This document shows, piece by piece, positions 1,542 through 51,704 of a DNA stretch of 64,000 nt (its first letter is position 1; every line of letters starts with the position of its first letter). The stretch lies in contig CBDBPM010000002.1 of assembly GCA_965208735.1 (NCBI GenBank), forward strand, positions 3,699,687 to 3,763,686, given 5' to 3'. The notes beneath the pieces are model-generated. The model worked only from the letters and a program-made list of their open reading frames with translations. It made no database searches and was not told where the DNA came from. Made by a program: the position numbers and the translations under genes. Source of the DNA: Candidatus Poribacteria bacterium. GTDB taxonomy: Bacteria; Poribacteria; WGA-4E; WGA-3G.

Positions 1542-2675
1542 TTAATTCTCCAAGCGTGTAAATAAAAGAATAACGCCACCGCCGACGAGAAAAGCCCCCA
1601 CAGTGATGAGCAGGTTCATATCAAGCTGCGGTAATATGTAAGCGGTATCTATGCGTTCCCCGTCAATCATTGCGAACTCGCGGAAGGGCCATAATCCGTA
1701 AAGTGAACCCACCATCAATCCGATCAGAAAGGCAACTGTGAGATTGCGGTACCGTTCCAATAAATAGTTGAGCAACCGTGTAAATGCCAGAAGTCCAAAC
1801 AGACATCCGAGCGCAGCAAAAGCGAGTATCAGAACACTTCCTAACATCGCCTCGCTTAAAGTACTACCATTGATCAACCCTGGAACACCCTCTATCAGCG
1901 TATTTATCGCCGTTAAAAGCGGGAAATAGACCCCGAGTGCAAGCATCAGAAAAGAACCGCTAATACCGGGCAGGATCATCGCTGAAATTGCGAGTACCCC
2001 GCTTCCGAAAAAGAGCCCGAGTTCCCAATACGTTGGAAACCCATCTGTGTGTCCTTTATTGTTATCCATCACTGCCGCGTTCTCGGTTTTATGGGCAACC
2101 CGTTCTAATTGCTGTTCGCCTGTACCGATAGAGAGGCTTAATATCAGGGCAACGGCAATCAATAGGACTAACAATTCCTTCCAGCCGAACGCTTTTAGCA
2201 TTCGCAACGGAACGAGAATAGATGTTAAAATCAAACCGCTAAAGAAGCCATAAGTCGCGTCATGATGATTGTTCAGCAGATAGACAATCAGTTTCGACGT
2301 AAGCAATAGGGCAGCGATCGCGCCGATGCCTAACAGTGCCAGAAAGCCGAAGTCAATACGGCGAAGCTCGGCTCCTGCTTCCGTGAAGGCAGATTTTTTG
2401 AATCTTAGTACCCCAAGTAATTTTTTAACCGTTGAAAGCCCGATACACCGTAATGCGCCAATGAGTCGCTCATAGATACCTAAAACGAGTGCAAGGGTCC
2501 CGCCACTCATACCGGGGATAATATTAGCAATACCTATCAGAAATCCGTTAACAAGAAGTCGGAGTGAATTCATATTTTGGTTGTCGGTTGTCCCATCTGA
2601 CGAACCGTCGTTAATGCCAACAATCTCACTGGCGAATTCAGACGCTGTAACTCGGTAGCAGCAGGCAGGTTTCAT
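1542..2675 (-). CDS. Polytopic membrane protein, DUF368-like, with two PGxSGG/PGISGS half-repeats
   Basis: Hydrophobic 377 aa ORF with an internal duplication carrying IPGMSGGT and LPGISGSF motifs that resemble the PGxSRSG repeats of the DUF368/UppP-like fold. The N-terminal roughly 35 residues are hydrophilic, so the true start may be the downstream Met. Confidence 0.5.
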   Translation of the reverse strand: MKPACCYRVTASEFASEIVGINDGSSDGTTDNQNMNSLRLLVNGFLIGIANIIPGMSGGTLALVLGIYERLIGALRCIGLSTVKKLLGVLRFKKSAFTEAGAELRRIDFGFLALLGIGAIAALLLTSKLIVYLLNNHHDATYGFFSGLILTSILVPLRMLKAFGWKELLVLLIAVALILSLSIGTGEQQLERVAHKTENAAVMDNNKGHTDGFPTYWELGLFFGSGVLAISAMILPGISGSFLMLALGVYFPLLTAINTLIEGVPGLINGSTLSEAMLGSVLILAFAALGCLFGLLAFTRLLNYLLERYRNLTVAFLIGLMVGSLYGLWPFREFAMIDGERIDTAYILPQLDMNLLITVGAFLVGGGVILLFTRLEN

Positions 2676-3837
2676 GATTTTGGATAAATTATACTACAAA
2701 AATGATTTTCTGTCAAACGGTTATATGTGAATTCTATTAGTTCCAGAGGTTTTAAGTTATCGGTAGTGAGCATTAGAATTTTCAGTGTTATACATACTTT
2801 CTGAAAATGAACCGACCTCAATAAATTAACTGTCTGTTAACTTTATTTCACCGCCCAATAGCCTTGATTTTTAGACTGGAAATCTGATGATTTTATGAAC
2901 ATTTCATGAACATGCCATAAAAAATTGTTCACGATTCTTATCGGTGAATTTGTAAGGCTTTCAGACCGCTTGGTACATAGGTTTACGGAATTCTAAAATT
3001 CTGTATTTTCGGAATTTTCATGAACAATTGGGCAATATTTTTTTGAGAGAACTCTGCTTCAATGTGCCACAAATCTAATGGATACGGGAAATCACAGCAC
3101 TTGATAACTTCGGATTATTTTTAGGTTGTTCATAAAACGTAATTTTTATTTGTTACACTTTGTTAACTATTTGTTAATTCCAAAGGTAATTTCGCGCACT
3201 TAGAATTTCTCTCAAAAACTACAATATATATGATAACATATTTAATCTAATAAAATCAAATTTATTCAATAGGACAGGCTTGTTTATATAGCACCCGCCG
3301 GAGTGCAAGAGAGACCCCCTTTTTTCTATAGATATATTGCTCTGCTGGAGCAAAAAGATTTGTTGATAGATATGGGTTTCTCGTGTCAGAAGTGCGATAT
3401 TGCTTCGCAGTGGGAATGTCAATGTAGGGATTCTTGTGGTAGGCGGAACGATAGGTGTATAAACCTTTTCGATTTCCCTTTTGACAAGATATTTACATAT
3501 CCATCTGACAGGGTAACATCTGACACAATTGTATCCATCGGACAGCCCCTAATTTTCGCTTGCAATTTACTATGAATTTGTATATAATACTTCACATAGA
3601 TTTATGATTGAGAAGAAATAAAATAGTAGGAAATTACGGTAATGTCGATTCCTTTGGTGTTAGGAGCAATGTTTGGAACAACTCGCTTTCTGCATTGTAG
3701 CACGAAGAAACATCTGACTGACGGTGAGGATTTGCTTGCCTATTGGGAAGGTGTAACTGGTTTTATTTTTCTACCGTTCAATATTTAAATGGGGATGCTT
3801 TATATTCAAATCTTAAAATTTGCTCTGGGAGGTAGGC

Positions 3838-6708
3838 ATGAGACAAACTGTCGCCGTTAAAGGCGCGCGAGAAAACAATCTACAAAACATTGAACTTGAG
3901 ATTCCGCGGGACCAACTCGTCGTCGTTACTGGCATCAGCGGTTCGGGTAAATCTTCATTGGCATTTGATACTGTTTATGCAGAAGGACAGCGCCGATTTC
4001 TGGAATCGATGTCCACGTACGCTAAACGCTTTATTACACAACTCAAAAAGCCAGATGTTGATTTCATTGATGGCTTGTCCCCTGTTGTCTCTATTGAACA
4101 GAAAACAATTACGATGAACCCGCGCTCCACTGTTGGGACAATGACCGATTTGCAGGACTATCTCCGTATGCTCTTTGCAACGATCGGTGTTGCGCATTGC
4201 CCCTATTGTGAAGTCGAGATTCCTATCCGTTCACACTATCAGATATTGGAACGGATGCTCTCTCTGCCAGAAGACACTGAGGTAGAGATTCACGCGCCAG
4301 TCTTCAAAATCTACGGTGAAGATTACGATTACCTTTTTGACGACATTCGCACGAAAGGATGCAGACACGTCAAAATTGACGGTATTGAACACGACATCAG
4401 CGAGGAAATTGAACTCGATCCAGATCAAGAGTACGATCTCCAAGTGATTGTTGACAAATTCTATGTCAAAAAGGATATTGATAAACAGGTGCTCGCCTCC
4501 CTTGAACACGCGATGCTCGTAGGCGAAGGGTTCATGCGTTTTGATGTCCAGTTTCCCGAAGATGCCGAAGCAGACGCGATACAGTTGTTGGAAGGTTTCG
4601 GATGTCCGAAACACGGCATAATCATGGCTGAACTCGGAGCGCATCATTTTACCTTTAACGAACCGACGGGCGCGTGTGTAACCTGCTCGGGACTTGGCAC
4701 CTACTTACAGGTACACCCAAACCTACTCGTCCCCGACAGGACACGGAGTATTGCCGATGGCGCGTTCGTCCACCAAGCATTCAACTACGACCCAGATAGA
4801 TGGGATGGCAGGACAATGTACAGCCTCGCTGCCCACTATGAGTTTGACCTCGACACGCCTTTTGCAGAACTTCCGGAAGCGGTTATTGATATCCTCTATT
4901 ATGGCACACACGGCGAAGAATTCCCGATCCGACAACCCGAAGGCGCGAAACCTGTTGAAAAACGCCACCTCGGTCGGAAAATCCGTTTCGACGGGATTAT
5001 TACCCGAATTGATAGACACTATCGCCGCTACCGAAAACAGGGCGAGGCGCACTCCGGTATGGAGGAATATCTCCGAAAAGTGATGGTAGAGCGCACCTGT
5101 CCCGATTGCAACGGTGCCAAGCTCAAGCGACAGCGGCTCCTTGTTACTATTGACGGCCAAACCATCCACGAAGTCGGTGAATTACACTTTGAAGAACTGA
5201 GAGATTTTCTGCTAAGTATTAAAGGTGTTCCCGAAAAACAGCGAGAAGCCGGCAAGCGCGTCATTAATGAACTTGTGACGCGGATTAACCTCCTCCTCGG
5301 CATCGGACTCGATTATCTCAACCTCAATCGTCGTGCCGCAACGCTCTCCGGCGGGGAATCGCAGCGTATCCGTCTCTCCACACAGATCGGATCCGGGTTG
5401 ATGGGTATGCTCTATGTCCTTGATGAACCGAGTATCGGTTTGCATCCAAAGGACAACGCTAAGATGATTGAGACCTTACGGAAACTACGGGACATCGGCA
5501 ACACCGTTATCGTCGTTGAACACGATGAAAGCACAATTCGCGCCGCAGATCATATTATTGAACTCGGACCGGGACCCGGTGTCCACGGCGGGCAGGTCGT
5601 CGTTCAAGGTGAACTTAAAACGGTACTTGACTGCCCTGAATCTTTGACAGGTCTCTATTTGAGTGGAAGACAAGAGATCCCAATGCCAGAAGAACGCCGC
5701 GGCTTAAACGGTAAGTTCCTAAGTATTACTGGTGCCAGAGAAAACAACCTCAGAAGCATTGATGTGGATATTCCGGTGGGTGTCTTTATCTGCGTTACCG
5801 GTGCTTCCGGTTCTGGCAAGAGTACCCTCGTCAACGAGATTCTCTATAAGAGATTACATTCTATCTATCATGACAGTCGGACGCTCTACGGTACACACGA
5901 TGAACTTGAAGGGCACGAACACGTCAGCGATGTGATTAGCATCGATCAGTCACCCATCGGGCGTTCCGCGCGTTCTAATCCTGCCACATACATCAAGTTT
6001 TACGATAATATTCGTAAACTCTTTGCCAGCACGCCTCTTTCACTCTCAAGAGGTTATACCGCCTCACGATTCAGTTTCAACGTCAAAGGTGGACGGTGTG
6101 AAGAGTGCCACGGTGAAGGCACAATCACCACGCAGCTTCACTTTATGCCGGATGTTGAGGTCGTTTGTCCGACCTGTAAAGGCGCACGTTACAATGAAGA
6201 TACGCTTGACGTTACTTACAACGGCAAGAATATCTCTGATATCCTTAATATGTCAATTGAGGAGGGCGTTGAGTTCTTCGCCGATCAACGACTGATTAAC
6301 CATAAATTGAGTGTCTTGAACCAACTCGGTATGGGGTATCTCCAGATCGGACACCCTGCTACGATCCTCTCCGGTGGTGAAGCACAGCGGATAAAGTTGG
6401 CAAGCGAACTCGGCAAACTCAAGTATGGCAAGCACAATCTCTATATTTTGGATGAACCGACCACCGGACTTCACCTCGCGGATGTACAGAAACTCTTGGA
6501 CAGCCTTAACCGTCTCGTCGATAACGGACATACTGTGCTTGTGATTGAGCATCATCTGGATGTCATCAAAACTGCAGATTACGTCATCGACCTCGGTCCT
6601 GAGGGCGGACATAAAGGTGGGGAAGTATTGGCGCACGGCACCCCTGAAGAGGTCGCAGCAGTTGAAGCCTCCTTCACGGGGCAATTTTTGAAGGAATATC
6701 TTATCTGA
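3838..6708 (+). CDS. uvrA: Excinuclease ABC subunit A
   Basis: Two ABC ATPase modules ([22 protein letters not shown] and [13 protein letters not shown]), zinc-finger Cys clusters and LSGGE signature motifs, about 956 aa. Start refined to the ATG at 3838, which is preceded by GGGAGGTAGGC. Confidence 0.9.
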
Positions 6709-6912: not shown

Positions 6913-7487
6913 CTGCCTCCCGTTCTGTTAGATGAGCATTTTCGGAAAACACAGCGTTCTGGTGGCACAAACTAAGAAGTTTGTGCTACAAAAGAGCAGC
7001 AGGCGTCCGTCCTACCTCTGTCAAATAAGGCGCGAGTCGGGTCTATAGGCAGCTCTGCGCGTTTCAGAGTTTTTCAGAGTATTCAGAGTCAACGCTGAAG
7101 TTCGTTTGGTTTTGCAAAGGTTGTAAACATACACTATGACTACTTTCTGTGCGTTTTCCGCATACGGTGCTCAGAAGTTTACTCTGAAAATTTTGTATTT
7201 GGCGAAGGCATGTTCTTTCTGGTGAATGTGAACGCGAAGTGAACGCTAAAAAAGATCTATGCTTTCAGAGTTTATACGTTTGTTAATATTTTGTTGCGAT
7301 GTCAAAGAGATTATGCTGAATCCCCCTCTCTATATTATCGTCCGTTAAGTGTTCATGAAGTGGGTATCGTTCACAGGTTTCGTAATTCAGGTGGAGGGAG
7401 GCGAGGAAGCTGCGTAAGTCCTAAATAAATGACAACTTGCGTTATTTTATTCAGAGGAAAAGCCACGCGAGTTTTTAAGGAAAAGCT

Positions 7488-9311
7488 ATGAAAAACGTCC
7501 TAATTATTGCCTTCTTGCTAATCTCAATTCTGTTTTCTCTAAGTGGATTTGCTCAGAATTACATGAAGTGGGGACTACCTGAACATGCTATACTTCGTCT
7601 TGGGAAAGGGCAAATTTACGACCTAAAGCATTCGCCAAATGGCAACCTGATTGCAGTAGCAACCTCTATAGGCGTTTGGATATATGATGCTCATTCTGGC
7701 AAAGAAATTAGATTGTTTCAAAAGCACGGTTATGAGGTTCATTCAGTGGCATTCTCGCCAAATGGCAAAATGCTGGCAAGTTCCGGTTCCGATGGTATCC
7801 ATCTTTGGGATCCCTCCACCGGTCAACATTTAACTACTCTTAAAGATAATGCACCGAGCGGTACAAAGAATTTGGTATTTTTTTCCCCTGATGGACGAAC
7901 ACTGGTTAGTACAAGGGATAAAATAATTAGATTTTGGGATGTGGTTAATAAGACTGTTTCTAAAACCCTTACAGGGCATACATGGCAAATTTTGTCGCTC
8001 GCTGTTTCACCAAACGGAAAAACTGTAGTTAGTGGATCTTCGATCATTGGTGAGAAACCACAGAGTAATGCCCTGCGTTGGTGGGATGTTGAAACTGGAA
8101 GAATGTTGTTTTTTTCAACAGCCATGGATTCAGCAGTTACTGCTCTGGCGTTTTCGCCTAATGGAAAGATACTAGCTTGCGCGAATAGCTTGTCGGAAAA
8201 TCCAAACATCTATTTATTTGATGGTGTTAGCGGTGAGATATTAAGGACGCTGCCCGAACTCCATGGTAAAACTATAAGCTTAGAATTTTCTCCTGATGGC
8301 AAAATGCTAGCCAGTACTGGATGGGATCGTACTATCCGCCTTTGGGATCCACACACTGGGCACCATATCCATACGTTTAGAGGATACGTAGGGTGGTTAT
8401 CGTTTTCGCCTGATGGTAAAACCCTTGTGAGTGGTGAGGATGGCGCAATCCGGTTTTGGGATACATCAACGAAACAACAGCGTTTTAGTGTCTCTGGTCA
8501 CTGGAATAGTATAGGTGCGTTGACGTTTTCACCCGATAGTAAAATGCTAATCAGTGGTGGTTATGAAACTTCCATGATTCAGAAATGGGATGTATCTACG
8601 GGCGAACTCATGTCTACCTTAACACTAAATAGAGAACTTATTTTGGCTTTTAATGCGAAACGCGGTTTATGTGCTAGCGTAAACATTGATGCAGATCCTA
8701 ATAAAATTCATATCCGTGACATTGATACCGGTCAACTTCGCGCTTCAATGGACTATCAGTTTCTCTCACCACGAATTTCAGGTGTTTCACCACTAACATT
8801 TTCACACGATGGAGAGACAATAATTGTTTTGAACGAACAAGAAATTGGTGAAAAACAGGTGTTGGAATTTTGGGATTTATGGCTTCATTCCGTTAACTTT
8901 CAGTTTGTGCCACATGAAAATGAAATTTTCAAATATTCTTATTCTACATATACTGAGGTTACGGCTCTTGCCTCTTCACCAGATAACACGCTTCTCGCTA
9001 CCGCTGTACGAGGTCGGGTTGCCCTTTGGAAGTTTGGCACCGACGAACTTATTCTGTCTTATCCTGAATTTGGTGGCCTTAGTTGCTATGCGTTGGCATT
9101 TTCCCCTGATAGCAAAATTCTTGCTGTCGGAGACTCTTTGGATATCCGTTTAATTGAAGTGGATACAGGAAATCTTATAACAACCGTGTCCAAACATAAC
9201 AACAGGGTTAAAGCGTTGGCATTTTCCGCTGATGGCAAAATTCTTGCGAGTGGAAGTCAGGACGGTACGATTTTGGTGTGGGACTTAGATAAAGTTATGA
9301 AGAGCCGGTAG
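7488..9311 (+). CDS. Secreted WD40-repeat beta-propeller protein
   Basis: N-terminal signal peptide (MKNVLIIAFLLISILFSLSGFAQ), followed by about 14 WD40 units that each carry an FSPDGK.LASG..D..I..WD motif. Confidence 0.8.
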   Translation: MKNVLIIAFLLISILFSLSGFAQNYMKWGLPEHAILRLGKGQIYDLKHSPNGNLIAVATSIGVWIYDAHSGKEIRLFQKHGYEVHSVAFSPNGKMLASSGSDGIHLWDPSTGQHLTTLKDNAPSGTKNLVFFSPDGRTLVSTRDKIIRFWDVVNKTVSKTLTGHTWQILSLAVSPNGKTVVSGSSIIGEKPQSNALRWWDVETGRMLFFSTAMDSAVTALAFSPNGKILACANSLSENPNIYLFDGVSGEILRTLPELHGKTISLEFSPDGKMLASTGWDRTIRLWDPHTGHHIHTFRGYVGWLSFSPDGKTLVSGEDGAIRFWDTSTKQQRFSVSGHWNSIGALTFSPDSKMLISGGYETSMIQKWDVSTGELMSTLTLNRELILAFNAKRGLCASVNIDADPNKIHIRDIDTGQLRASMDYQFLSPRISGVSPLTFSHDGETIIVLNEQEIGEKQVLEFWDLWLHSVNFQFVPHENEIFKYSYSTYTEVTALASSPDNTLLATAVRGRVALWKFGTDELILSYPEFGGLSCYALAFSPDSKILAVGDSLDIRLIEVDTGNLITTVSKHNNRVKALAFSADGKILASGSQDGTILVWDLDKVMKSR

Positions 9312-12029: not shown

Positions 12030-12173
12030 GCGAAGCTCAGGCAACGCGCCGAACCGCAAAGAAAATTAAAAAAAGTTACAAAGAACGATAGTCCGTAATG
12101 AAATGGAGGACGGGTTACGTAAAGGCGGTTGAAGTAACCAACCCGCCTGACCGAACCGCAAGGAAAGTTAAAA

Positions 12174-17285: not shown

Positions 17286-19271
17286 TCACCACGGCTGCCT
17301 ATATGACGGCGAATTCGCGAAACGTTCCATCCCCAATTCCAAATCAATCTCTGTGTTCGGTGGCAGCTGGACACGGAGATACATGCCATTGACCGGAACT
17401 GTTCGCACTGCCTGACCGATGTTAGCGCGTGCTGAAGTGAAGTTGTGCTCACCCATCGCACCTGCTTGCACAATAACTTCCCTTGATGCTGTTTTATTCA
17501 GATTGACAAGCTGCAGTCCGGTTGTATTCGCTGTCATTTTTGTAACCAATGCACCAACATCTGGTGGAAGTCCCGGTCGCTGCTGTTGTGCGTCAAAGTG
17601 CCGCAGCCGTGTCACGAACATGCCTCCGTTGTAATGCGGTAGCGGAGTGCCACAAGTAAGTTGAACCAACCCTTCACACGTAATTGGGTTACGTCGCTGG
17701 AAATAGGCATCTCCATAACTGGCTGGATCTTCATCGTCGTTATCCATAAAATTCAGACGTGCCTCGACTTGCGAGAGGTTGTGATTGAGGATCGCTTCTG
17801 GGTATTCAGGATATTCACCCCGCATATATGCCAACCATGCACCGTCATGTCCACCGCTATCCTTCGTATGATGCCAAGCGTTGATGTCAAATTTCGATCC
17901 CGTCTTTTTAGCGATGTTCTCTGCGCGTTTTTGATCTGTCTGATCCATTGACAGTGCCCATAGATGCGCAACATCCGAGGCGTGCATCGGCATGAATTCA
18001 AACCAGCCGTCCACCTGCAAAGCCGTGCCACCCTCGTTTGTAATTGGATACTGCAACCACGAACCCGGAACATAGTTAACCTTACCCGGATCGCCATACT
18101 TCTGTGGGACGTAGAGTTGATCGTTCTGCTCAATCCCTCTCTCAATTAAAACGTCAATCTGTGAGCGCGGAAAATCAAGATACGCCAAATCTCGCCAGAG
18201 CAACGCCGCATTCTGTCCAGCGATACTTACTGCTTGTCCGACGCTATGCCATCCATGCGGCCAACTCCACCCATAGTATGAACCATACCACTTACCGTCT
18301 ATATGTTCACCAATCTTACCTGAAAGTCCGACATTGTCTGGAACGATTCCGCCGTTTTCCGCTGTACGTTCTATCCACGCCTCAACATATTCCCGTACCC
18401 ACGCTTTATATTTATCTTCACCGGTTAGGAGATAAGCATTGGCAGCAAGCGTCGTGGCGGCGAGGTTGACGACTGTATCTCCGACACCTTGCCGTTCCCT
18501 GATAAGCTGCCCCATGCGTATGCGCAGTGCCTCATTTTCCCGCACCGCTTCATGGCTCGTGCCGCCCGGTATATCGTAGAACGGCATATTATAGCCGTCC
18601 CAGGGCCAATATGGGTGTCCAGCAAAAGCCCAAAACGCCGGTCCTTTACTACCGTTCATAGCGCACTTGATGATTTTGTGCTGCGGGTCGTAGTTCAGTG
18701 CATCAGGGTCTTCGTTCATAAAAAACCCCGCAAACCGTTTTGCCCGTTCAATGTGCTTAGGGTTTGACGGGTCCGCCATGCAGAGCATATAAAAAAGGTA
18801 GTTTCCCTCGCTTTGATGAAACCAGTCATAACCGGGTTGATACTCCTTCACGACCATCGGGTAACCGTGACCGGTACCATATCGCGCCATATCATTTGTG
18901 ATGACATCGAATTCCGTATCTGCGTCAACCAAGAATTGCGTATCACCACCGAGCATATAAAAGAGGGGCCAGTTATGAAAACTTTCATAAGCATCGTCCA
19001 ATCCGTCAATACTCTGAAAGTCTGGATTCGTTGGCCAGAGCAGTGTGCCATCTGGACGCGTATATTTCTGTAAGACTTCTGGTCCTGCTGCGTTCATTTT
19101 ATCAATGAGTTCGCGTTCAAGGACTGCCCACGTCGGTGGTGTTTGGATGTGCGTCTGCGCTTCAATCGTTGGAAACACGATTTTTACCCCTGACATTTGG
19201 ATTGCAATTGGTTGCAGTATATCATATTTTCGTGTATTCGTGAAACTTATGTTTTTGGGCACCAGAGACAT
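17286..19271 (-). CDS. Large hypothetical protein, possibly a polysaccharide-active (alpha/alpha)6-type enzyme
   Basis: Uninterrupted 661 aa ORF with uniform codon usage. Aromatic- and Trp-rich (WSWPHGWHS, DGWFEFMPMH), as in glycoside hydrolase or lyase folds. No family identified with confidence. Confidence 0.55.
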   Translation of the reverse strand: MSLVPKNISFTNTRKYDILQPIAIQMSGVKIVFPTIEAQTHIQTPPTWAVLERELIDKMNAAGPEVLQKYTRPDGTLLWPTNPDFQSIDGLDDAYESFHNWPLFYMLGGDTQFLVDADTEFDVITNDMARYGTGHGYPMVVKEYQPGYDWFHQSEGNYLFYMLCMADPSNPKHIERAKRFAGFFMNEDPDALNYDPQHKIIKCAMNGSKGPAFWAFAGHPYWPWDGYNMPFYDIPGGTSHEAVRENEALRIRMGQLIRERQGVGDTVVNLAATTLAANAYLLTGEDKYKAWVREYVEAWIERTAENGGIVPDNVGLSGKIGEHIDGKWYGSYYGWSWPHGWHSVGQAVSIAGQNAALLWRDLAYLDFPRSQIDVLIERGIEQNDQLYVPQKYGDPGKVNYVPGSWLQYPITNEGGTALQVDGWFEFMPMHASDVAHLWALSMDQTDQKRAENIAKKTGSKFDINAWHHTKDSGGHDGAWLAYMRGEYPEYPEAILNHNLSQVEARLNFMDNDDEDPASYGDAYFQRRNPITCEGLVQLTCGTPLPHYNGGMFVTRLRHFDAQQQRPGLPPDVGALVTKMTANTTGLQLVNLNKTASREVIVQAGAMGEHNFTSARANIGQAVRTVPVNGMYLRVQLPPNTEIDLELGMERFANSPSYRQPW

Positions 19272-19584
19272 TCAATTGTCCATTTTTCGATCGAATTTTC
19301 ACCCCGGGCCCGGTAGGTTCGGTTTTTGCGGCGTACACGCCCAGATGCGAAGTGCATCGCGGTGTACTCACCCAAATTTTGCCCACACGCGGAGACCAAA
19401 TTTGTCTTTGCTTTACATTTGCGACTTGCATTCCAACCGAACCGGGTTCTAAGAGAAAATCTTGACCACTTCAAATCCTCTTGAATCCCATCTCAACCCC
19501 AGGTCCGGTAGGTTCGGTTTCCTAACCGAACCGGCTCCTTCAAAAAAAGATGTGAAACCCAATAATTTCTTAAAATTGAATGCC
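19265..19584. repeat. Composite intergenic repeat carrying CCGGTAGGTTCGGTTTCCTAACCGAACCGG hairpin units and a conserved 3' module (family shared with 28.7-29.2 kb and 46.8 kb)
   Basis: TCCATTTTTCGATCGAAT...CCGGTAGGTTCGGTTTT at the left end; GCATTCCAACCGAACCGG and CCGGCTCCTTCAAAAAAAGATGTGAAACCCAATAATTTCTTAAAATTGAATGC at the right end are near-identical to 29118-29174. Confidence 0.6.
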
Positions 19585-19710
19585 CTGATCATAGTTAGGT
19601 TTTCCTTGACATCTGGTCTCTTGTTATGATATGTTAATTCAGTAAAGTATATTGATTTGTATTACGTTAACTTGTGGTAAAAAATTACCGCTCGGAGTCT
19701 GGATGTACGT

Positions 19711-20583
19711 GTGCCAACTGATTTGCCATTAGGGATGGACATCTTAGAAATGACAGATAGTGAACTTTATGAAATAGGGATTAAAATCCTTACTGCTAAA
19801 CTCGGTGACTCTGAGGTGCCACGGTTTATTCGGCAGTGCAATCCCGGTAAAGGCGATTACTCTGTTGATCGACATAAATTGCTGGCAAATCAGCCCGGCA
19901 TTGACACCATTGTCAAGCGGATCCAAGATAGACGTGCGGCAAGGGAAGCAGAAGAACGCTCGCGTGCTAAAAGGTTTGCTATGCCTCAAAGTGAAATCCA
20001 AAAAATGACAGATATTGAGATTTCTGAAATCGGAAATCAGGTTCTTATCAATAAACTTGGCACAGCTGGATTGATAGGGTTTATCAGGATTTGCCAGGAA
20101 CTTAACGGTGGTTATCCTCGGGGACTGATTGAAAGTAGTGAAGAGGCTAAAGAATACATTAAACTTTACACTGCAAGCTTGATCTTAAATCCTAAAATAG
20201 TCGAAGACTACATTAAACGCGGCAATGCCTATAGTTACATTGGTGAGCATGACAAAGCCATTGCTGACTATGATCAGGCGATAAAACTCAAACCTAATTA
20301 TGCCAAAGCCTATTACAATCGCGGCAACGCTTATCGTGATAAAGTTGATTTTGACCAAGCTATCGCCGACTATACCAGAGCAATAGAACTCGAGCCCGAT
20401 TATGTTGATGCCTATTACAATCGCGGTAAACTTTACGATGAGATAAATGCGTATAACAAAGCCATTGAAGACTTTAGCACAGTGATAAAACTTGACCCTG
20501 AACATGCCGATGCATATAACTATCGTACTACGGTTTACCGCGATAAAGGCGAGTATGACAAAGCTAGGGAATCAGTCAGATAA
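19711..20583 (+). CDS. TPR-repeat protein with a duplicated N-terminal about 70 aa module
   Basis: The N-terminus has two copies of an (L/I)xxMTDxE(L/I)xEIGxx(I/V)LxxKLG...FIRx module, followed by at least five TPR units (AYYNRGNAYRDKVDFDQAIADYTRAIELEPDY...). GTG or ATG (19735) start. Confidence 0.7.
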   Translation: MPTDLPLGMDILEMTDSELYEIGIKILTAKLGDSEVPRFIRQCNPGKGDYSVDRHKLLANQPGIDTIVKRIQDRRAAREAEERSRAKRFAMPQSEIQKMTDIEISEIGNQVLINKLGTAGLIGFIRICQELNGGYPRGLIESSEEAKEYIKLYTASLILNPKIVEDYIKRGNAYSYIGEHDKAIADYDQAIKLKPNYAKAYYNRGNAYRDKVDFDQAIADYTRAIELEPDYVDAYYNRGKLYDEINAYNKAIEDFSTVIKLDPEHADAYNYRTTVYRDKGEYDKARESVR

Positions 20584-20610
20584 AGAAATTCTTCTTGTGA
20601 AGGAGGGCGA

Positions 20611-22239
20611 ATGAACGATAAATCCGATTCTCAAAATGAACTTAATAGGGTTTTGGAAAAGATTCAAGAAATAGTAAAAAAGTCCGCTGATGGAGATTAC
20701 ATCTATCGGGGTGAACCAGAACTGCATCAAGAACATCCTTATCATGGAAAGGTTTCCTCAAGCCTGTATCGCTCGTCATTGACTGATTCTGTAATGGAAG
20801 AGGGTATAGAAGAGTACCGTAAAATTATTGAATCTCAGATTGGGAACAGGGAACGGTGGACTTTGGAGTTGGCGAAAGAATATTTATATGAAACTGGCAG
20901 CGAAACAATCAGCGATTTTGAAATCTTAGCGCGACTCCAACACCATGGTGGTAAGACCAATCTTATAGATTTCACAACTGACTACCTGATTGCTCTCTTT
21001 TTTGCCTGTGATAGATCCTATCATAAAGATGGCAGGGTTATCTTACAAAAAAGAGAATCGGAAGATTACCAAGCGGAAACACCTTCAGAAGCAATTAAAC
21101 GGGTGGAATCCCAAAAAAGTGTACTGCTCCGGTCGCCAAAAGGTTTTATCAATCCAGATGTTGTGGTGATTATTCCAAAGGAACTCAAATTTTCCGTGCT
21201 AAACTATCTTGAAAAGCACCACGACATATCTACTAAAAAGATTTACAAAGATATCCACGGATTTGTAAAATGGTTAGGCGGATACATTGATCCTATGGCT
21301 GAATTTGGTAAAGGGGTAATTTGTCAAAATAGGGCGAGTTTAGGAAATAACATGCAGGAGAAATTGAAATGGTATGAAAAAGCTTATGAGCATTTTACCG
21401 AAGCATTGAGACTAAAATCAGATTTCACCGAAGTTTATATTCATCGCGGAGCTGTTTTTCGCGATGTTGCCCAGTTTGATCCTGCTCTTAAAGACTTTAA
21501 TACTGCAATAGAAATAGTCCCTGAGGCTGCCGATGCGTATAACGAGCGCGGAAGATGTTATGCTAAAATGGGTGATACTGAAAAAGCACTAAAGGATTTC
21601 AACATTGCTATAGATTTGAATTCAGAGAAGGCAGATTTCTATAACAATCGCGGTATAACTTACAAAGATATGGGTGAAGTTGACTTGGCAATGAAAGATT
21701 ATAATAAAGCAATAGAACTAGATCCAGAATTTCCCGAGGCCTATAACAATCGCGGCATAGTTTATGACGAGAGAGGTGAACTTGACTGTGCTATCAAGGA
21801 CTATAGTAAGGCAATAGAACTCAAATCTTATTATGCGAATGCCTGTAATAATCGCGGTCTGGCCTACCGAGAAAGGGGTGATGTTGATCTTGCCATTGAA
21901 GACTTTAGAAATGCAATTATAGGAGAGTATGATTTTGCTGAAGCTTACTACAATCTCTGTGAAGCCTACCTCATCAAAGGTGATTTTGAGAGTGCTTATA
22001 CTGACTTGGCTACACTAGCAATGCTAATGTCGTCTCCCTATGCGTATTTTGCTTGCGGTATAATCGGGTTGTGCCAACAGCAATGGGAAAAGGCTAGATC
22101 AGACTTTACTGTTGCTACGGATAACGGATTGGATATCGTCGCTTTATTTTATAAAGATTATGGAGGCATTGAAGACTTTGAGCAGAAGAATGATCTTCAG
22201 TTACCGGAAGACATCGCGACGATGTTGAGGCAGCAATAA
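20611..22239 (+). CDS. FRG-domain protein fused to a C-terminal TPR array
   Basis: N-terminal YIYRGEPELHQEHPYHGKVSSSLYRS ... LARLQHHGGKTNLIDFTTDYLIALFFAC fits the FRG-domain (PF08867) pattern: FRG ... L.PS.fR ... QHyG.PTrLlDwT...A.yFA. The C-terminal half is at least seven TPR units plus a tail shared with the next gene. Confidence 0.7.
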   Translation: MNDKSDSQNELNRVLEKIQEIVKKSADGDYIYRGEPELHQEHPYHGKVSSSLYRSSLTDSVMEEGIEEYRKIIESQIGNRERWTLELAKEYLYETGSETISDFEILARLQHHGGKTNLIDFTTDYLIALFFACDRSYHKDGRVILQKRESEDYQAETPSEAIKRVESQKSVLLRSPKGFINPDVVVIIPKELKFSVLNYLEKHHDISTKKIYKDIHGFVKWLGGYIDPMAEFGKGVICQNRASLGNNMQEKLKWYEKAYEHFTEALRLKSDFTEVYIHRGAVFRDVAQFDPALKDFNTAIEIVPEAADAYNERGRCYAKMGDTEKALKDFNIAIDLNSEKADFYNNRGITYKDMGEVDLAMKDYNKAIELDPEFPEAYNNRGIVYDERGELDCAIKDYSKAIELKSYYANACNNRGLAYRERGDVDLAIEDFRNAIIGEYDFAEAYYNLCEAYLIKGDFESAYTDLATLAMLMSSPYAYFACGIIGLCQQQWEKARSDFTVATDNGLDIVALFYKDYGGIEDFEQKNDLQLPEDIATMLRQQ

Positions 22240-22271
22240 CTCTAAAACCCATCGAATAGGGGTATAGTGAA

Positions 22272-23105
22272 GTGGTAACGCGTAAACCTAATGATACCGA
22301 GTCATATTACAATCGTGGCATCGCTTACTACGAAAAACGTGAGTATGATAAAGCCATCGCAGACTTTAGCGAGGTCATAAAACGCGCACCCAATCATGTT
22401 GATGCTTATTACAATCGCGGCAATGCTTATTGGGATAAAGTTGATTTTGACGAAGCCATTGCAGACTATACCAAGGCGATAGAACTCAAGCCCGATTATG
22501 CCGAAGCCTATTACAAGCGCGGTAGAATTTATGCTGAGGACGATGAGTATCACAAAGCCATTGACGACTTTGGTATGACGATAAAGTTTGACCCTGAACA
22601 TTCCAACGCGCATGGTTATCGTGCTGACCTTTACCGTGATATAGGCGAATACGACGAAGCCGTTGCGGGGTATAACATGGAAATGGAACTCCGCCCCGGT
22701 GCCCCCGAGGTCTATTATAACCGTGGAAACACTTACGCCGCAAAAGGTGAATATAACAACGCCATTGAAGACTTTAGCAAAGCGATAGAACTAAATCCAG
22801 AGTTTGCAGAGGTTTATGTCAAACGCACTTTAACTTATATCCGAATAGGCAAATTTGATCGCGCCATTCAAGATTATGACAAGGTGCTGGATCTCAAACC
22901 AAAATCTATTGCATTCTACGCGGCTCGTGGTATAATATCTCTACAAATAGAAGAATGGGAAAGTGCTAAATTAGACCTGATTTTTGCCAGAAATTTAAGA
23001 GTGAATATCATCAATATATTCCATACAATGTACGAAAACGTTGCTGACTTTGAAGAAAAAAATAATGTGCAGTTGCCGAAAGACATCACGGCAATGCTGA
23101 CGTAA
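22272..23105 (+). CDS. TPR-repeat protein, paralog of 19711-20583 and of the C-terminal half of 20611-22239
   Basis: TPR units with 80-90% nucleotide identity to stretches of the first TPR gene. The C-terminal tail (NVADFEEKNNVQLPKDITAMLT) is paralogous to the tail of the FRG-TPR protein. GTG start with a weak RBS. Confidence 0.65.
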   Translation: MVTRKPNDTESYYNRGIAYYEKREYDKAIADFSEVIKRAPNHVDAYYNRGNAYWDKVDFDEAIADYTKAIELKPDYAEAYYKRGRIYAEDDEYHKAIDDFGMTIKFDPEHSNAHGYRADLYRDIGEYDEAVAGYNMEMELRPGAPEVYYNRGNTYAAKGEYNNAIEDFSKAIELNPEFAEVYVKRTLTYIRIGKFDRAIQDYDKVLDLKPKSIAFYAARGIISLQIEEWESAKLDLIFARNLRVNIINIFHTMYENVADFEEKNNVQLPKDITAMLT

Positions 23106-28591: not shown

Positions 28592-28696
28592 ATCTCTGTC
28601 TCCTTATTTTTAGGTATCTATGAAGATATTGTATCAAATTTACAATTTCAAGTCAAGTTTTTCATGCATATTGCATACGCGACAGAGTTATTCAGT

Positions 28697-29174
28697 TCTC
28701 CATTTTTCGATCGAATCTTCACCACCAGAGCCGGTAGGTGCGGTTTTGCGGCGTACTCATAGGGGTCAATTTAAGAAAAAATAACCGTCGTTGCCACCAG
28801 AAACGGTAGGCACCATTTGAAACTACACTGGATTTTACGCAGAAACCTTGGATACTTCTAAACTGCTCTTTAGTCCCGTAGGGACGGTATCTATGTAGTA
28901 CGTGTATGAACCTAAACCCTCAGCCCCGTAGGGGCGGCATCTGTATAATAGCGAAGGTTCTATAGATGTCACCCCTACGGGGTTCAAGACTTCTGGCAAT
29001 ATGTGTCTACAGAGATATCGTCCCTACGGGACTAAAAAACATGTCTGTTTCTCTTAAATTGACACCTATGGTGCGGTTTCGCGGCGTACTCGCCCAAATG
29101 CGACCTGCATTCCAACCGCACCGGCTCCTTTAAAAAAAGACGTGAAATCCAATATTTTCTTAAAATTGAATGCT
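28697..29174. repeat. Mosaic palindromic repeat element (MITE/REP-like) with four periodic GTA/TAC-loop hairpins
   Basis: The left arm is shared with 19265- and 46767-. The centre has hairpins A 28871-28886 AGTCCCGTAGGGACGG, B 28921-28936 AGCCCCGTAGGGGCGG, B' 28969-28984 and A' 29018-29032 (the reverse complement of A), spaced about 50 bp apart. The right arm 29118-29174 is near-identical to 19530-19584. Confidence 0.7.
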
Positions 29175-29197
29175 TCTGGTTGACTACCTCTATAGCA

Positions 29198-29226
29198 TTG
29201 ACTTTTCAATTTTTCGTTGTTATACT
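29198..29226 (+). promoter_or_regulatory. Candidate sigma70 promoter for the 29250 gene
   Basis: TTGACT (29198-29203), 17 nt spacer, TATACT (29221-29226), 24 nt upstream of the ATG. Confidence 0.5.
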
Positions 29227-29249
29227 GACGCAAAGGCAGGTACAAACCG

Positions 29250-29858: not shown

Positions 29859-29876
29859 AGGATTGCTGGTTACTTC

Positions 29877-29932
29877 GTAGGAGCGAGCTGTGCTCGCGAT
29901 CTTTGTAGGAGCGAGCTATGCTCGCGATCTTT
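29877..29932. terminator. Two tandem 28 bp hairpin units between convergent genes (candidate bidirectional terminators)
   Basis: GTAGGAGCGAGCTGTGCTCGCGATCTTT repeated twice (29877-29904 and 29905-29932, one mismatch). Each unit is a GCGAGC/GCTCGC stem followed by TCTTT. Confidence 0.45.
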
Positions 29933-45308: not shown

Positions 45309-45393
45309 ATCAAGGAGCATTTTGGGCTACTTGGTTATTGGGTGGGTCTAACTGTTTTTAAGGCTTTAACCGTTGAAGCGTCTTCCACATTTT

Positions 45394-45693
45394 TTAAGGA
45401 ATCCCGGGTTGATAGTTAAGCAAAATCAAGGGGCTGCGTAAGTCCTATTAGAAAAATGAACATAGCCCGTAATGAAATGGAGGAGCGGATCTACGGACTC
45501 TCGCTGCGAGGCAAACTTCAAATTCCAAACCCGCTCTGACCGAACCGCTTTTAAGGAACCCTGGGTTGATAGTTAAGCAAATCACTGGGTTGCGTAAGTC
45601 CTATTAGAAAAACGAAACGTAGCCCGTAATGAAATGGAGGGCGGCACTACGGAATAGCACTTCAAATTCCTAACCCGCTCTGACCGAACCGCA
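45394..45693. repeat. Tandem duplication of an about 150 bp intergenic element that ends in an SD-bearing leader (GACCGAACCGCAAGGAAAATTAAAA-ATG)
   Basis: Unit 1 is 45394-45548 and unit 2 is 45551-45693, with about 85% identity. Both contain TGCGTAAGTCCTATTAGAAAAA and TAGCCCGTAATGAAATGGAGG. Single diverged copies lie at 12085-12173 and about 52750-52840. Confidence 0.7.
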
Positions 45694-45708
45694 AGGAAAA
45701 TTAAAATT

Positions 45709-46766: not shown

Positions 46767-46913
46767 GGCGGTAGGTTCGGTTTCCTAACCGTACCATAGG
46801 TGTCAATTTTAGAAAAAATAACCGTCTTGGGACCAGTCCCGGTAGGTTCGGTTTCCTAACCGAACCGGATTCTACGCGGAAACCTTGAAGACTTCAAAGA
46901 CCTCTTGAGTCCC
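46767..46913. repeat. Copy of the GGTAGGTTCGGTTTCCTAACCG hairpin repeat family (left arm of the 28.7 kb element)
   Basis: GGCGGTAGGTTCGGTTTCCTAACCGTACCATAGGTGTCAATTTTAGAAAAAATAACCGTC...CCGGTAGGTTCGGTTTCCTAACCGAACCGG...GAGTCCCGTAGG aligns with 28735-28885. A degenerate inverted partner (ACCTACGG) lies at about 47172. Confidence 0.65.
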
Positions 46914-47299
46914 GTAGGTGTTTTTGCTGTGGTGTTTCCCTTAGGTTGAACGGCGTTGAAAAGGTTGATGTTGATATGCCAAGCACACCTGAAAGTCAAT
47001 AGTTTGCCATATCCATTCAAGAATGGAGTGAAACCCAACTTTACGCTGTCAGGATTCCGGGAACTTCCAAGCCAAAACGTTGGGTTTCACTCGGTTTCTG
47101 GTGAATGTGGTGTACTTAGAGAAAGTTGTGTTTTTCTATGATTTTCAGTGTTTTGATAGCATCCGTTCAACCCAACCTACGGTGTTAGGATTGTTTTTTC
47201 TAAAATCGACCCCTAACCTACTATGTATACTTGTGATGTGCGAAAAGTATAAAAGAAAATAAAGACGAACAGGTTACCAGTATATCTAAGGCAGGAACT

Positions 47300-51484: not shown

Positions 51485-51704
51485 ATAATCGTAGGGGCGA
51501 GGTCACCTCGTCCCTACAGCAAACGCATTCCAAAATCCTAAGTGGACAAATCCGTAATTTTAGACAGTTCTTGTAGGTTGGGTTGAACGGTAAAAGACAG
51601 ATAACTATCAGGTTTCAAAGGAGATACGGTTTTCCAATAAACCGTCGATAGAGATAGGCATAGCGAAACCCAACAATCCAACGACACCATCATTGGGGGT
51701 AAAC

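Follow-up and report, generated by a model that had tools for sequence, protein, structure and literature searches.

Results

A composite repeat between two divergent genes

The 64,000-nucleotide stretch of a Candidatus Poribacteria contig analysed here (the window; G+C 40–53%) contains an intergenic composite repeat of 496 bp at positions 28683–29178, lying between the genes for an FtsX permease and an ATP-binding cassette (ABC) ATPase on the minus strand and an open reading frame of 202 aa (ORF202) on the plus strand. FtsX homologues reach 95% identity, and those with names belong to Candidatus Poribacteria, while an exact-sequence look-up of the two flanking proteins returned no record. The composite consists of four nested layers, namely a type A element, the insert M3 in the loop of its central hairpin, a T element, and a palindrome of four hairpins (Table 1). 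The central hairpin is a repetitive extragenic palindrome (REP), and its relatives in other genomes accompany genes predicted to encode a REP-associated tyrosine transposase (RAYT).

The bounds of the composite were set by matches in other genomes, and its termini are the inverted repeats CAGAGTTATTCAGTT and AATTGAATGCTTCTG. The sequence-only reading of this region had proposed one mosaic element at 28697–29174. Every sequence that it quoted occurs in the window and the repeat itself stands, but the ends are 28683 and 29178, and the supposed single element is in fact four nested ones. BLAST of 28640–29240 against the window matched 19270–19336, 19420–19445, 19524–19583, and 46787–46918, in addition to internal inverted repeats, with identities of 87% (28690–28756 versus 19270–19336), 94% (28758–28789 versus 46795–46826), and 92% (29114–29173 versus 19524–19583). 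These matches bear out a strongly self-folding intergenic mosaic that shares modules with 19263–19587 and 46767–47216. The right arm, earlier placed at 19430–19584, is indeed shared but not contiguous there, as GCATTCCAACCGAACCGG (19428–19445) lies ~78 nt from the rest (19524–19583). The locus noted at 46767 is also shared and extends to 47216.

Table 1. Layers of the composite, related loci in the window, and adjacent promoter-like sites
Feature	Position	Strand	Description
Left arm of type A	28683–28732	+	Terminal inverted repeat CAGAGTTATTCAGTT at 28683–28697; other-species matches begin at 28682/28683
Central REP, 5' half	28733–28746	+	GTAG tag and 5' stem (GGTAGG TGCGGTTT), G variant
22-nt duplication, left copy GGTGCGGTTTTGCGGCGTACTC	28737–28758	+	REP 5' stem and M3 head; abuts T element
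T element, 311 bp	28759–29069	+	Terminal inverted repeats ATAGGGGTCAATTTAAG and CTTAAATTGACACCTAT
Degenerate internal REP of T	28804–28829	+	CGGTAGG and CACCATTTGAAACTACACT
Linker GGATTTTACGCAGAAACCTTGG...	28830–28866	+	Homologous to the stretch between REP and RAYT gene
Four-hairpin palindrome (H4)	28864–29041	.	Two ~50-nt hairpin units, then their inverted copies
22-nt duplication, right copy (GGTGCGGTTTCGCGGCGTACTC)	29070–29091	+	
M3, 31-nt insert (CGCGGCGTACTCGCCCAAATGCGACCTGCAT) in REP loop	29080–29110	+	10 copies
Central REP, 3' half	29111–29124	+	TCC AACCGCACC GG; stem AACCGCACC at 29114–29122, matching C variant
Right arm of type A	29125–29178	+	Ends in inverted repeat AATTGAATGCTTCTG (29164–29178); other-species matches stop at 29178–29181
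Second type A composite	19263–19587	+	Left arm, REP with M3 insert(s), short linker, second REP, right arm
Third related locus	46767–47216	+	REP, then T element (46796–47216) with intact internal REP
Promoter-like site of FtsX-permease gene	28628–28656	-	TTGACT-17-TACAAT; outside composite
Promoter-like site of ORF202	29198–29226	+	TTGACT-17-TATACT; 19 nt outside composite

The order of the insertions can be read from the junctions. Intact type A elements of ~130 nt consist of left arm, REP, and right arm (loci L063 194–324, L048 5083–5216, and L030 1069–1198 of other genomes) and end in the inverted repeats CAGAGNCATTCAATT and AATTGAATGNCTCTG, and the corresponding repeats of T elements are ATAGGKGTCAATTT and AAATTGACMCCTAT. 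Both REP halves of the composite carry the rarer G/C stem variant, indicating that they were formerly one hairpin. Copies of the 22-nt GGTGCGGTTTYGCGGCGTACTC flank the T element and agree at 21 of 22 positions, and this junction type recurs in L074. The remainder of M3 follows the right copy but not the left, so M3 was in place before the T element, and it was the initial 22 nt of the hairpin that became duplicated. M3 also occurs in the loops of two other GTAG-tagged hairpins (L003 and L093), which makes three different hosts in all, and its mini-stem covaries (GGCG/CGCC versus GGTG/CACC). Other inserts likewise sit in hairpin loops in L110. In L074, from another species and another gene context, the order is type A arm, REP, M3 head, four T elements, M3 tail, and type A arm. 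The degenerate REP inside the T element is colinear with an intact REP at 46839–46868, in L093, and in L104, and its position in L074 is held by a GGCGC/GCGCC hairpin. The linker behind it aligns to L104 at 6068–6161 and 5474–5585 and is common to 46867–46887.

Further nesting was observed around these modules. At the third related locus, the first hairpin of the T element is split, directly after CCCGTAGG, by an extra palindrome of ~280 nt (46915–47195), whose inverted ends are of the CCGTAGGTTGGGTTGAACGG type and which contains the pair GTGAAACCCAAC/GTTGGGTTTCAC further inside. A solo head of this palindrome lies at 51573, and relatives occupy the same position in L074 (5325–5568) and L129 and another position in L103. 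A TA-flanked miniature inverted-repeat transposable element (MITE; ATGAAGATTAA...TTAAACTTCA) in L110 (~1912–2036) lies within the loop of a CCCTACGGG hairpin and holds a doublet of another REP (GCGAGGTTAGGAAACCTCGC); at ~7250–7530 the same MITE hosts a free four-hairpin palindrome. With this MITE serving as both insert and host, nesting works both ways.

The core hairpin is a REP

REPs are defined as palindromes of 20–50 nt that follow GTAG, are extragenic, cluster in bacterial interspersed mosaic elements (BIMEs), and occur with RAYT genes in "REPtrons" (PMC8266576). The core hairpin CCGGTAGGTTCGGTTTCCTAACCGAACCGG, which the sequence-only reading had described as a hairpin with a 9-bp stem, is such a REP: a strand-asymmetric palindrome with a GTAG foot, present in many extragenic copies. 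Its 9-bp stem GGTTCGGTT/AACCGAACC encloses a 4-nt loop within an outer CCGG/CCGG, and we counted 152 strict copies. The variants at stem position 4, T/A and G/C, are associated (129 + 10 paired versus 12 unpaired). Among 189 copies, the sequence to the left almost invariably reads NNCGGTA and then GG, and all five REPs in the window carry the GTAG tag. The motif GGTAGGTKCGGTTT occurs five times in the window, where 0.02 occurrences are expected.

The family extends far beyond the three loci of the window. In a scan of one genome per species, more than 117 loci contained the 22-nt core; they represent many species and sponge hosts, and among the matches listed every named locus is a Candidatus Poribacteria metagenome-assembled genome. 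Up to six REP copies occur per 8-kb locus, and several loci can lie on one chromosome (e.g., OZ243938.1). In ~1 Mb of loci plus the window (275 REP heads), only 9.5% of heads fall in stop-free stretches of at least 150 codons, compared to 81.6% of all bases. REP pairs are mainly convergent (57 +- versus 5 -+), and the convergent doublets are mainly ~54, 77–82, and 102 nt apart. The focal composite holds one split and one degenerate REP, and all of its REP parts lie on the plus strand, without a doublet of the kind that defines REPINs (REP doublet sequences). Conserved linkers and tandem arrays are found in L026, L074, and L104, and a REP forms a 34-nt tandem triplication at L054 5923–6012.

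RAYT genes are linked to the repeats in related genomes

A tblastn search with an Escherichia coli RAYT sequence provided the lead to RAYT genes, and the matches were then checked against Pfam, NCBIfam, and PDB. L104 5579–6070 and L071 3084–3557 match Pfam Y1_Tnp and exceed the cutoff of 80 bits for NCBIfam NF047646, "REP-associated tyrosine transposase" (125 and 115 bits, respectively), and the 163-aa L104 product matches PDB 4ER8 (E. coli TnpA-REP). Two inverted REPs flank each of the two genes, their GTAG sides facing away from it; in L104 both REPs share the loop variant TTTGCAA, while the usual REP has TTTCCTAA. A single small HUH/Y1 tyrosine transposase gene bracketed by inverted cognate REPs, the arrangement of a REPtron, is present in these related genomes. 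The MITE, REP, or BIME type of repeat proposed earlier can thus be specified as a GTAG-tagged REP whose cognate RAYT gene is encoded by related genomes. We found 160 RAYT homologues at E < 1e-10, mostly one per contig, and the named ones all come from Poribacteria. Three further RAYT subfamilies have flanking REP types of their own, in the form of three other GTAG-type palindromes.

The type A and T layers of the composite share sequence with RAYT loci. The upstream flank of the L071 RAYT gene matches the type A left arm and REP, and the L104 RAYT gene is contained in a 688-bp unit whose ends are T-type inverted repeats. The left 126 nt of the window's T element are colinear with both ends of this unit (77% and 74% identity) in the order inverted repeat, CCAG..CGGTAGG, REP position, GGATTTTAC..GAAACCTT, and CTCTT.AGTCCC. 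Since the ends and left arm of the T element are the sequences that bound and flank the L104 RAYT gene, the T element is most simply read as a RAYT unit whose gene was replaced by the four-hairpin palindrome.

Other RAYT-associated repeats were also observed. Just past the ORF202 stop, two tandem 28-nt units CTTYGTAGGAGCGAGCTRTGCTCGCGAT (29873–29928) represent a second GTAG-tagged REP family, which flanks another RAYT gene in L127 (four copies upstream and two inverted copies downstream). The orthologous intergenic region at FtsX in L125 is filled by the same family. L118, the nearest relative, lacks the family and has a gap of 13 nt in its place. In L126 (211–1965), a TnpB-like gene with OrfB_IS605 and Cas12f-like domains lies directly upstream of a RAYT homologue on the same strand, representing either an IS605-like pair or an insertion beside a RAYT gene.

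Stems of the four-hairpin palindrome covary

The four CCCGTAGGG hairpins lie at 28872–28887, 28922–28937, 28970–28985, and 29019–29033, and their starts are 50, 48, and 49 nt apart, in agreement with the ~50-nt spacing noted earlier. The outer pair lies within 35-nt inverted arms that are 89% complementary. The motif YCCCGTAGGGR occurs four times in the 64 kb, always in the composite, compared to 0.04 expected by chance. Three stem types are present in the composite, all fully paired (GTCCC/GGGAC, GCCCC/GGGGC, and ACCCC/GGGGT), and folding of the composite as single-stranded DNA gave -98.6 kcal/mol (z = -9.96). The layout recurs inside a T element in L083 (6040–6240) and free-standing in L110 (7300–7500), and a variant with an interrupted fourth hairpin is found in L129 (3290–3100). 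A metagenome scan for the four-hairpin centre found a single further locus, in a different context, so the window copy does not stem from a recent burst detectable in that scan.

A profile search seeded on perfect hairpins collected 75 units of this hairpin family. In their 5-bp stem, 93.9% of cells pair, which is an upper estimate, and all five pairs have changed on both sides (46 cells). None of 500 shuffles reached the observed values, and the signal was gone when the partner was slid by 1–3 columns. The seed set contains the stem types GTCCC/GGGAC, GCCCC/GGGGC, ACCCC/GGGGT, GTCGC/GCGAC, and ATCCC/GGGAT, to which non-seed matches add GTCCT/AGGAC, GCCTC/GAGGC, GTTCC/GGAAC, and ACCCT/AGGGT. 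A copy of the window's T core in L129 (92% identical) has GTCCT/AGGAC where the window has GTCCC/GGGAC. The compensatory changes first noticed within the element thus hold across the family, and the covariation among copies that had been set as a test is present. It shows pressure to keep the hairpin, whether in DNA or in RNA.

Other known hairpin arrays were considered and rejected. Clustered regularly interspaced short palindromic repeats (CRISPR), integron attC sites, and terminators do not fit the array: its units number only 2–4 and have variable parts of 14 nt, T-runs are absent, and neither cas nor integrase genes lie in the vicinity. Rfam gave no match in the window at gathering thresholds, and a permissive search returned only chance-level microRNA matches (E ≥ 0.12).

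T elements are flanked by 20–25-nt direct repeats

We identified 39 candidate T elements with paired ends in the loci and the window, and near-perfect direct repeats of 20–25 nt flanked 15 of 18 T elements. These repeats mostly start with GG and end with CC, and many of them follow GTAG; duplicated targets other than the core REP were found in L014, L026, L068, L096, and L107. In the arrays of L026, L074, and L104, adjacent T elements share one 22-mer. The L026 array (2400–3010) has a period of 152 nt, and in L074 (4700–5850) four consecutive T elements share 22-mers. Ordinary T elements (L093, L087, L104, and L074) contain two hairpin units in direct order, whereas the window's T element has the palindromic four-hairpin form. 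A fixed distance between GTAG and the T insertion was rejected, as it ranges over 21–26 nt across REP types (junctions counted by eye). BLAST of the T flanks against all loci gave no usable pair of filled and empty sites because these flanks are themselves repeats.

The 20–25-nt duplications are the one unusual feature of the system and have two readings. They may be true target duplications made on insertion, or they may arise when a unit of T plus one REP moves between equivalent REP-adjacent cleavage sites, as in models for BIMEs (PMC3333891). Type A elements have shorter repeats, with 8–10-bp direct repeats exactly at the ends of copies in L063 (184–334), L087 (6150–6860), and L054 (5850–6070), which read TTATMATAAA, CCATCTTTAR, and GGGAGTCG, respectively. 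The window's two type A copies have no terminal direct repeats. A target duplication around type A is not expected for a RAYT-type enzyme.

The composite is missing from the same site in close relatives

Comparison loci for the FtsX/ORF202 site were reached via FtsX homologues, which identified L118 and L123 as relatives. L118 has the same gene order and a 95% identical FtsX, and the FtsX of L123 is 92% identical. The intergenic region measures 658 nt in the window, 157 nt in L118, and 221 nt in L123; without the composite, 162 nt would remain in the window (658 - 496). The comparison was based on lengths and on flank alignment with the composite removed, as MAFFT/global alignment misplaced short sequences across the gap. 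No part of the composite is present in the orthologous region of L118 or L123, and it is missing at this site in all four relatives examined. The 8.7 kb of L118 contains no REP, T end, or hairpin unit, and the second REP family after ORF202 is missing there as well.

The promoter-like sites on both sides are kept in the relatives without the composite. The stretch upstream of the FtsX gene aligns there with substitutions in the -10 region, and the ORF202 site is intact in L118 and L123. A sigma70-like promoter had been placed in the 3' end of the element; it is actually 19 nt beyond the end. Both divergent sites point away from the composite, which the sequence-only reading had suggested might be transcribed. 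The absence of the composite from close relatives that keep the promoters indicates an insertion without sign of local function, of which the promoter is not part. The locus itself is thus unchanged, with both neighbouring genes retaining their own promoter-like sites.

Other repeats in the window

A 157-nt unit occurs twice in tandem at 45392–45707, its end coinciding exactly with the ribosome-binding site and start codon (ATG) of a gene for a GFO/IDH/MocA oxidoreductase (45709). It recurs in part at 12084–12173, up to the start codon of an amidase gene (12174), and on the minus strand at 956–1041. No Rfam family matches the unit, which may represent a further repeat family or a common leader or promoter cassette. 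Internally repetitive genes are located at 7488–9311 and 19711–23105, one with a WD40-like period of 120 nt and the others, tetratricopeptide repeat (TPR) genes, with a period of 102 nt (34 aa). Eukaryote-like repeat proteins are often reported in sponge symbionts.

Discussion

Nested mobile repeats as the most probable origin

The composite is most probably a nested pile-up of non-autonomous mobile repeats of a Poribacteria REP/RAYT system, a reading to which we assign a probability of roughly 75%. In this view it constitutes selfish repeat DNA and not a novel gene, RNA, or regulatory device. The kind of system is already known; what is new is its occurrence in Poribacteria, here as a four-layer composite, and our literature search found no description of REPs or REPtrons in this phylum. 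A type A element built around one REP gained the 31-nt M3 in its loop, and a T element then split that REP after 22 nt of the hairpin. In published work, RAYTs recognise a hairpin together with GTAG, next to which they cleave DNA and join it again (PMC8266576), and models exist for TnpA-REP excision, integration, and tandem amplification of BIME units (PMC3333891). By analogy, the Poribacteria enzyme would act on folded single-stranded DNA, recognising GTAG and the hairpin and cutting beside it. Hairpins may thus be both cargo and landing site, and a preference for existing hairpins would produce the Russian-doll nesting. Stem complementarity may be kept since copies that do not fold would cease to spread. 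The window copy probably brings the cell no benefit, sitting in what appears to be the dispensable middle of a divergent promoter region.

Several observations weigh against this reading. The spread of REPs by RAYTs is itself still a hypothesis, and experimental demonstration that a RAYT binds and cleaves its single-stranded REP is limited to the enzymes of E. coli, Stenotrophomonas, and Marinomonas (PMC8266576). No RAYT gene lies within the 64-kb window. The focal type A element has no recognisable target duplication (left GCATACGCGA, right GTTGACTACC). Seeding on perfect hairpins inflates the paired fraction of stem cells somewhat, and the covariation would be explained equally well if selection acted on RNA hairpins or on a symmetric site for protein binding. 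Terminal inverted repeats together with flanking direct repeats are hallmarks of DDE transposition, and Y1 enzymes of the IS200/IS605 type have been described as leaving neither inverted repeats nor target duplications (PMC3333891).

Type A and T may instead be ordinary MITEs of one or more unseen DDE transposases, with REPs as mere targets or passengers and RAYT uninvolved. We consider this unlikely, although the terminal inverted repeats on both layers, the 8–10-bp direct repeats at type A ends in L063, L087, and L054, the 20–25-bp direct repeats around T elements, and the clearly TA-flanked MITE nested in the same repeats in L110 all speak for it. REPs are also known as targets of several insertion sequences, and the described footprint of IS200/IS605-type enzymes again favours a DDE enzyme (PMC3333891). 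However, no DDE transposase with type A or T ends was met in the window or in the ~1 Mb of repeat-rich loci, and the T ends are shared by a single coding partner, a RAYT; the type A arm likewise has a RAYT as its sole coding partner. The T target is nearly always a GG...CC 22-mer beside GTAG, suggesting recognition of the hairpin or of GTAG. To our knowledge, a target duplication of 20–25 bp is also atypical of known DDE families, which counts against such MITEs.

The composite, or its four-hairpin core, is still less likely to serve the host, for example as a topological or transcriptional insulator or as a platform for nucleoid proteins or gyrase, and we regard such a role as improbable. Its position exactly between two divergent promoters and the compensatory changes that keep the stems would suit it, and such roles are documented for REPs and BIMEs (PMC8266576, PMC3333891). 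In contrast, the closest relatives keep the same gene pair without the composite, copies occur in many unrelated contexts and orientations and differ in composition, and the composite has no terminator-like site. A structured non-coding RNA (small RNA or processed transcript) encoded by the hairpin array is very improbable. Covarying stems, the strong predicted folding (z = -9.96), and one weak promoter-like match inside the composite on the minus strand (28972 to 28945) are what such a gene might show, but no Rfam family is matched at threshold, presence differs between close relatives, and the flanking promoters fire outward. The palindromic core also folds alike on both strands, which is expected of DNA-level hairpins and not of an RNA gene. 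A host role and an RNA gene are less likely than mobile repeats of the REP/RAYT system because the composite is missing in close relatives, is strand-symmetric, and lacks an Rfam match.

Implications for REP mobility

The T elements and the RAYT-bearing unit with the same ends might be a still-mobile REPtron lineage, in which the RAYT gene would itself be carried within a transposable unit bounded by inverted repeats and landing on, and duplicating, REP-like GG...CC 22-mers, a tentative proposal that we consider unlikely. We know of no described RAYT or IS200/IS605 pathway that leaves a duplication footprint of 20–25 nt. If the proposal were true, the duplications would be the first genomic footprint of a RAYT spreading REP-containing units; alternatively, they would reflect a new insertion chemistry with staggered cuts on either side of a hairpin-sized target. 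REP/RAYT systems are best known from Proteobacteria and their spread is still unsolved. Our observations add an uncultivated phylum of sponge symbionts with at least four RAYT/REP pairs and a legible record of events, including nested insertions, a filled versus an empty site in close relatives, and constant-length duplications around one class of element. The repeats also break Poribacteria metagenome assemblies, are worth masking before searches for regulatory RNAs, and are possible strain markers.

Comparison with known repeat systems

The Poribacteria system resembles the REPtrons of E. coli, Pseudomonas, and Stenotrophomonas (PMC2817692, PMC3333891, PMC8266576) in its extragenic, multicopy palindromes of 20–50 nt following GTAG, in RAYT genes between inverted REPs with one REP family per RAYT subfamily, and in the combination of REPs and conserved linkers into mosaics that vary between loci. 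It differs in its host phylum and in the focal REPs, which have the same orientation instead of alternating and are embedded in elements with terminal inverted and flanking direct repeats, nested in four layers. As with REPINs (Bertels and Rainey 2011, PMC3116915), convergent REP doublets dominate elsewhere in the family and RAYT homologues mostly occur once per contig, whereas the focal composite has no doublet.

Long inverted repeats belonging to repeat families enclose some RAYT genes, and certain REPs lie within long palindromes (PMC3733652). The L104 RAYT gene, within long inverted repeats that form a repeat family, resembles these "TIRtrons" (Di Nocera et al. 2013, PMC3733652), and the REP at the centre of a longer palindrome has its counterpart here in CTAAATTGACACCTAT-REP-ATAGGTGTCAATTTAG. 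The Poribacteria unit differs in combining inverted repeats with genuine GTAG REPs and in derived elements with 20–25-nt flanking direct repeats, which are unreported in that paper; the same paper also mentions the mosaic intergenic regions of Neisseria. Relatedness to IS200/IS605 and its gene-less derivatives, the palindrome-associated transposable elements (PATEs), is evident from the HUH and Tyr motifs, the matches to Pfam Y1_Tnp and PDB 2FYX and 2XM3, the subterminal hairpins beside the gene, and the gene-less derivatives themselves. IS200/IS605 elements differ in having neither terminal inverted repeats nor target duplication (PMC3333891). The RAYT model is also favoured over IS200/IS605 by NCBIfam (125 versus 56 bits).

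Similar modular repeats include cyanobacterial small dispersed repeats in MITE-like hosts, pneumococcal BOX elements, enterobacterial ERIC sequences, and Neisseria mosaics. They share with the Poribacteria repeats variable mosaics of hairpin modules, inserts of 21–31 nt in the hairpins of other repeats, and a presence that varies between close relatives. They have no sequence similarity to the repeats described here and mostly no identified enzyme, whereas the Poribacteria family has a cognate RAYT.

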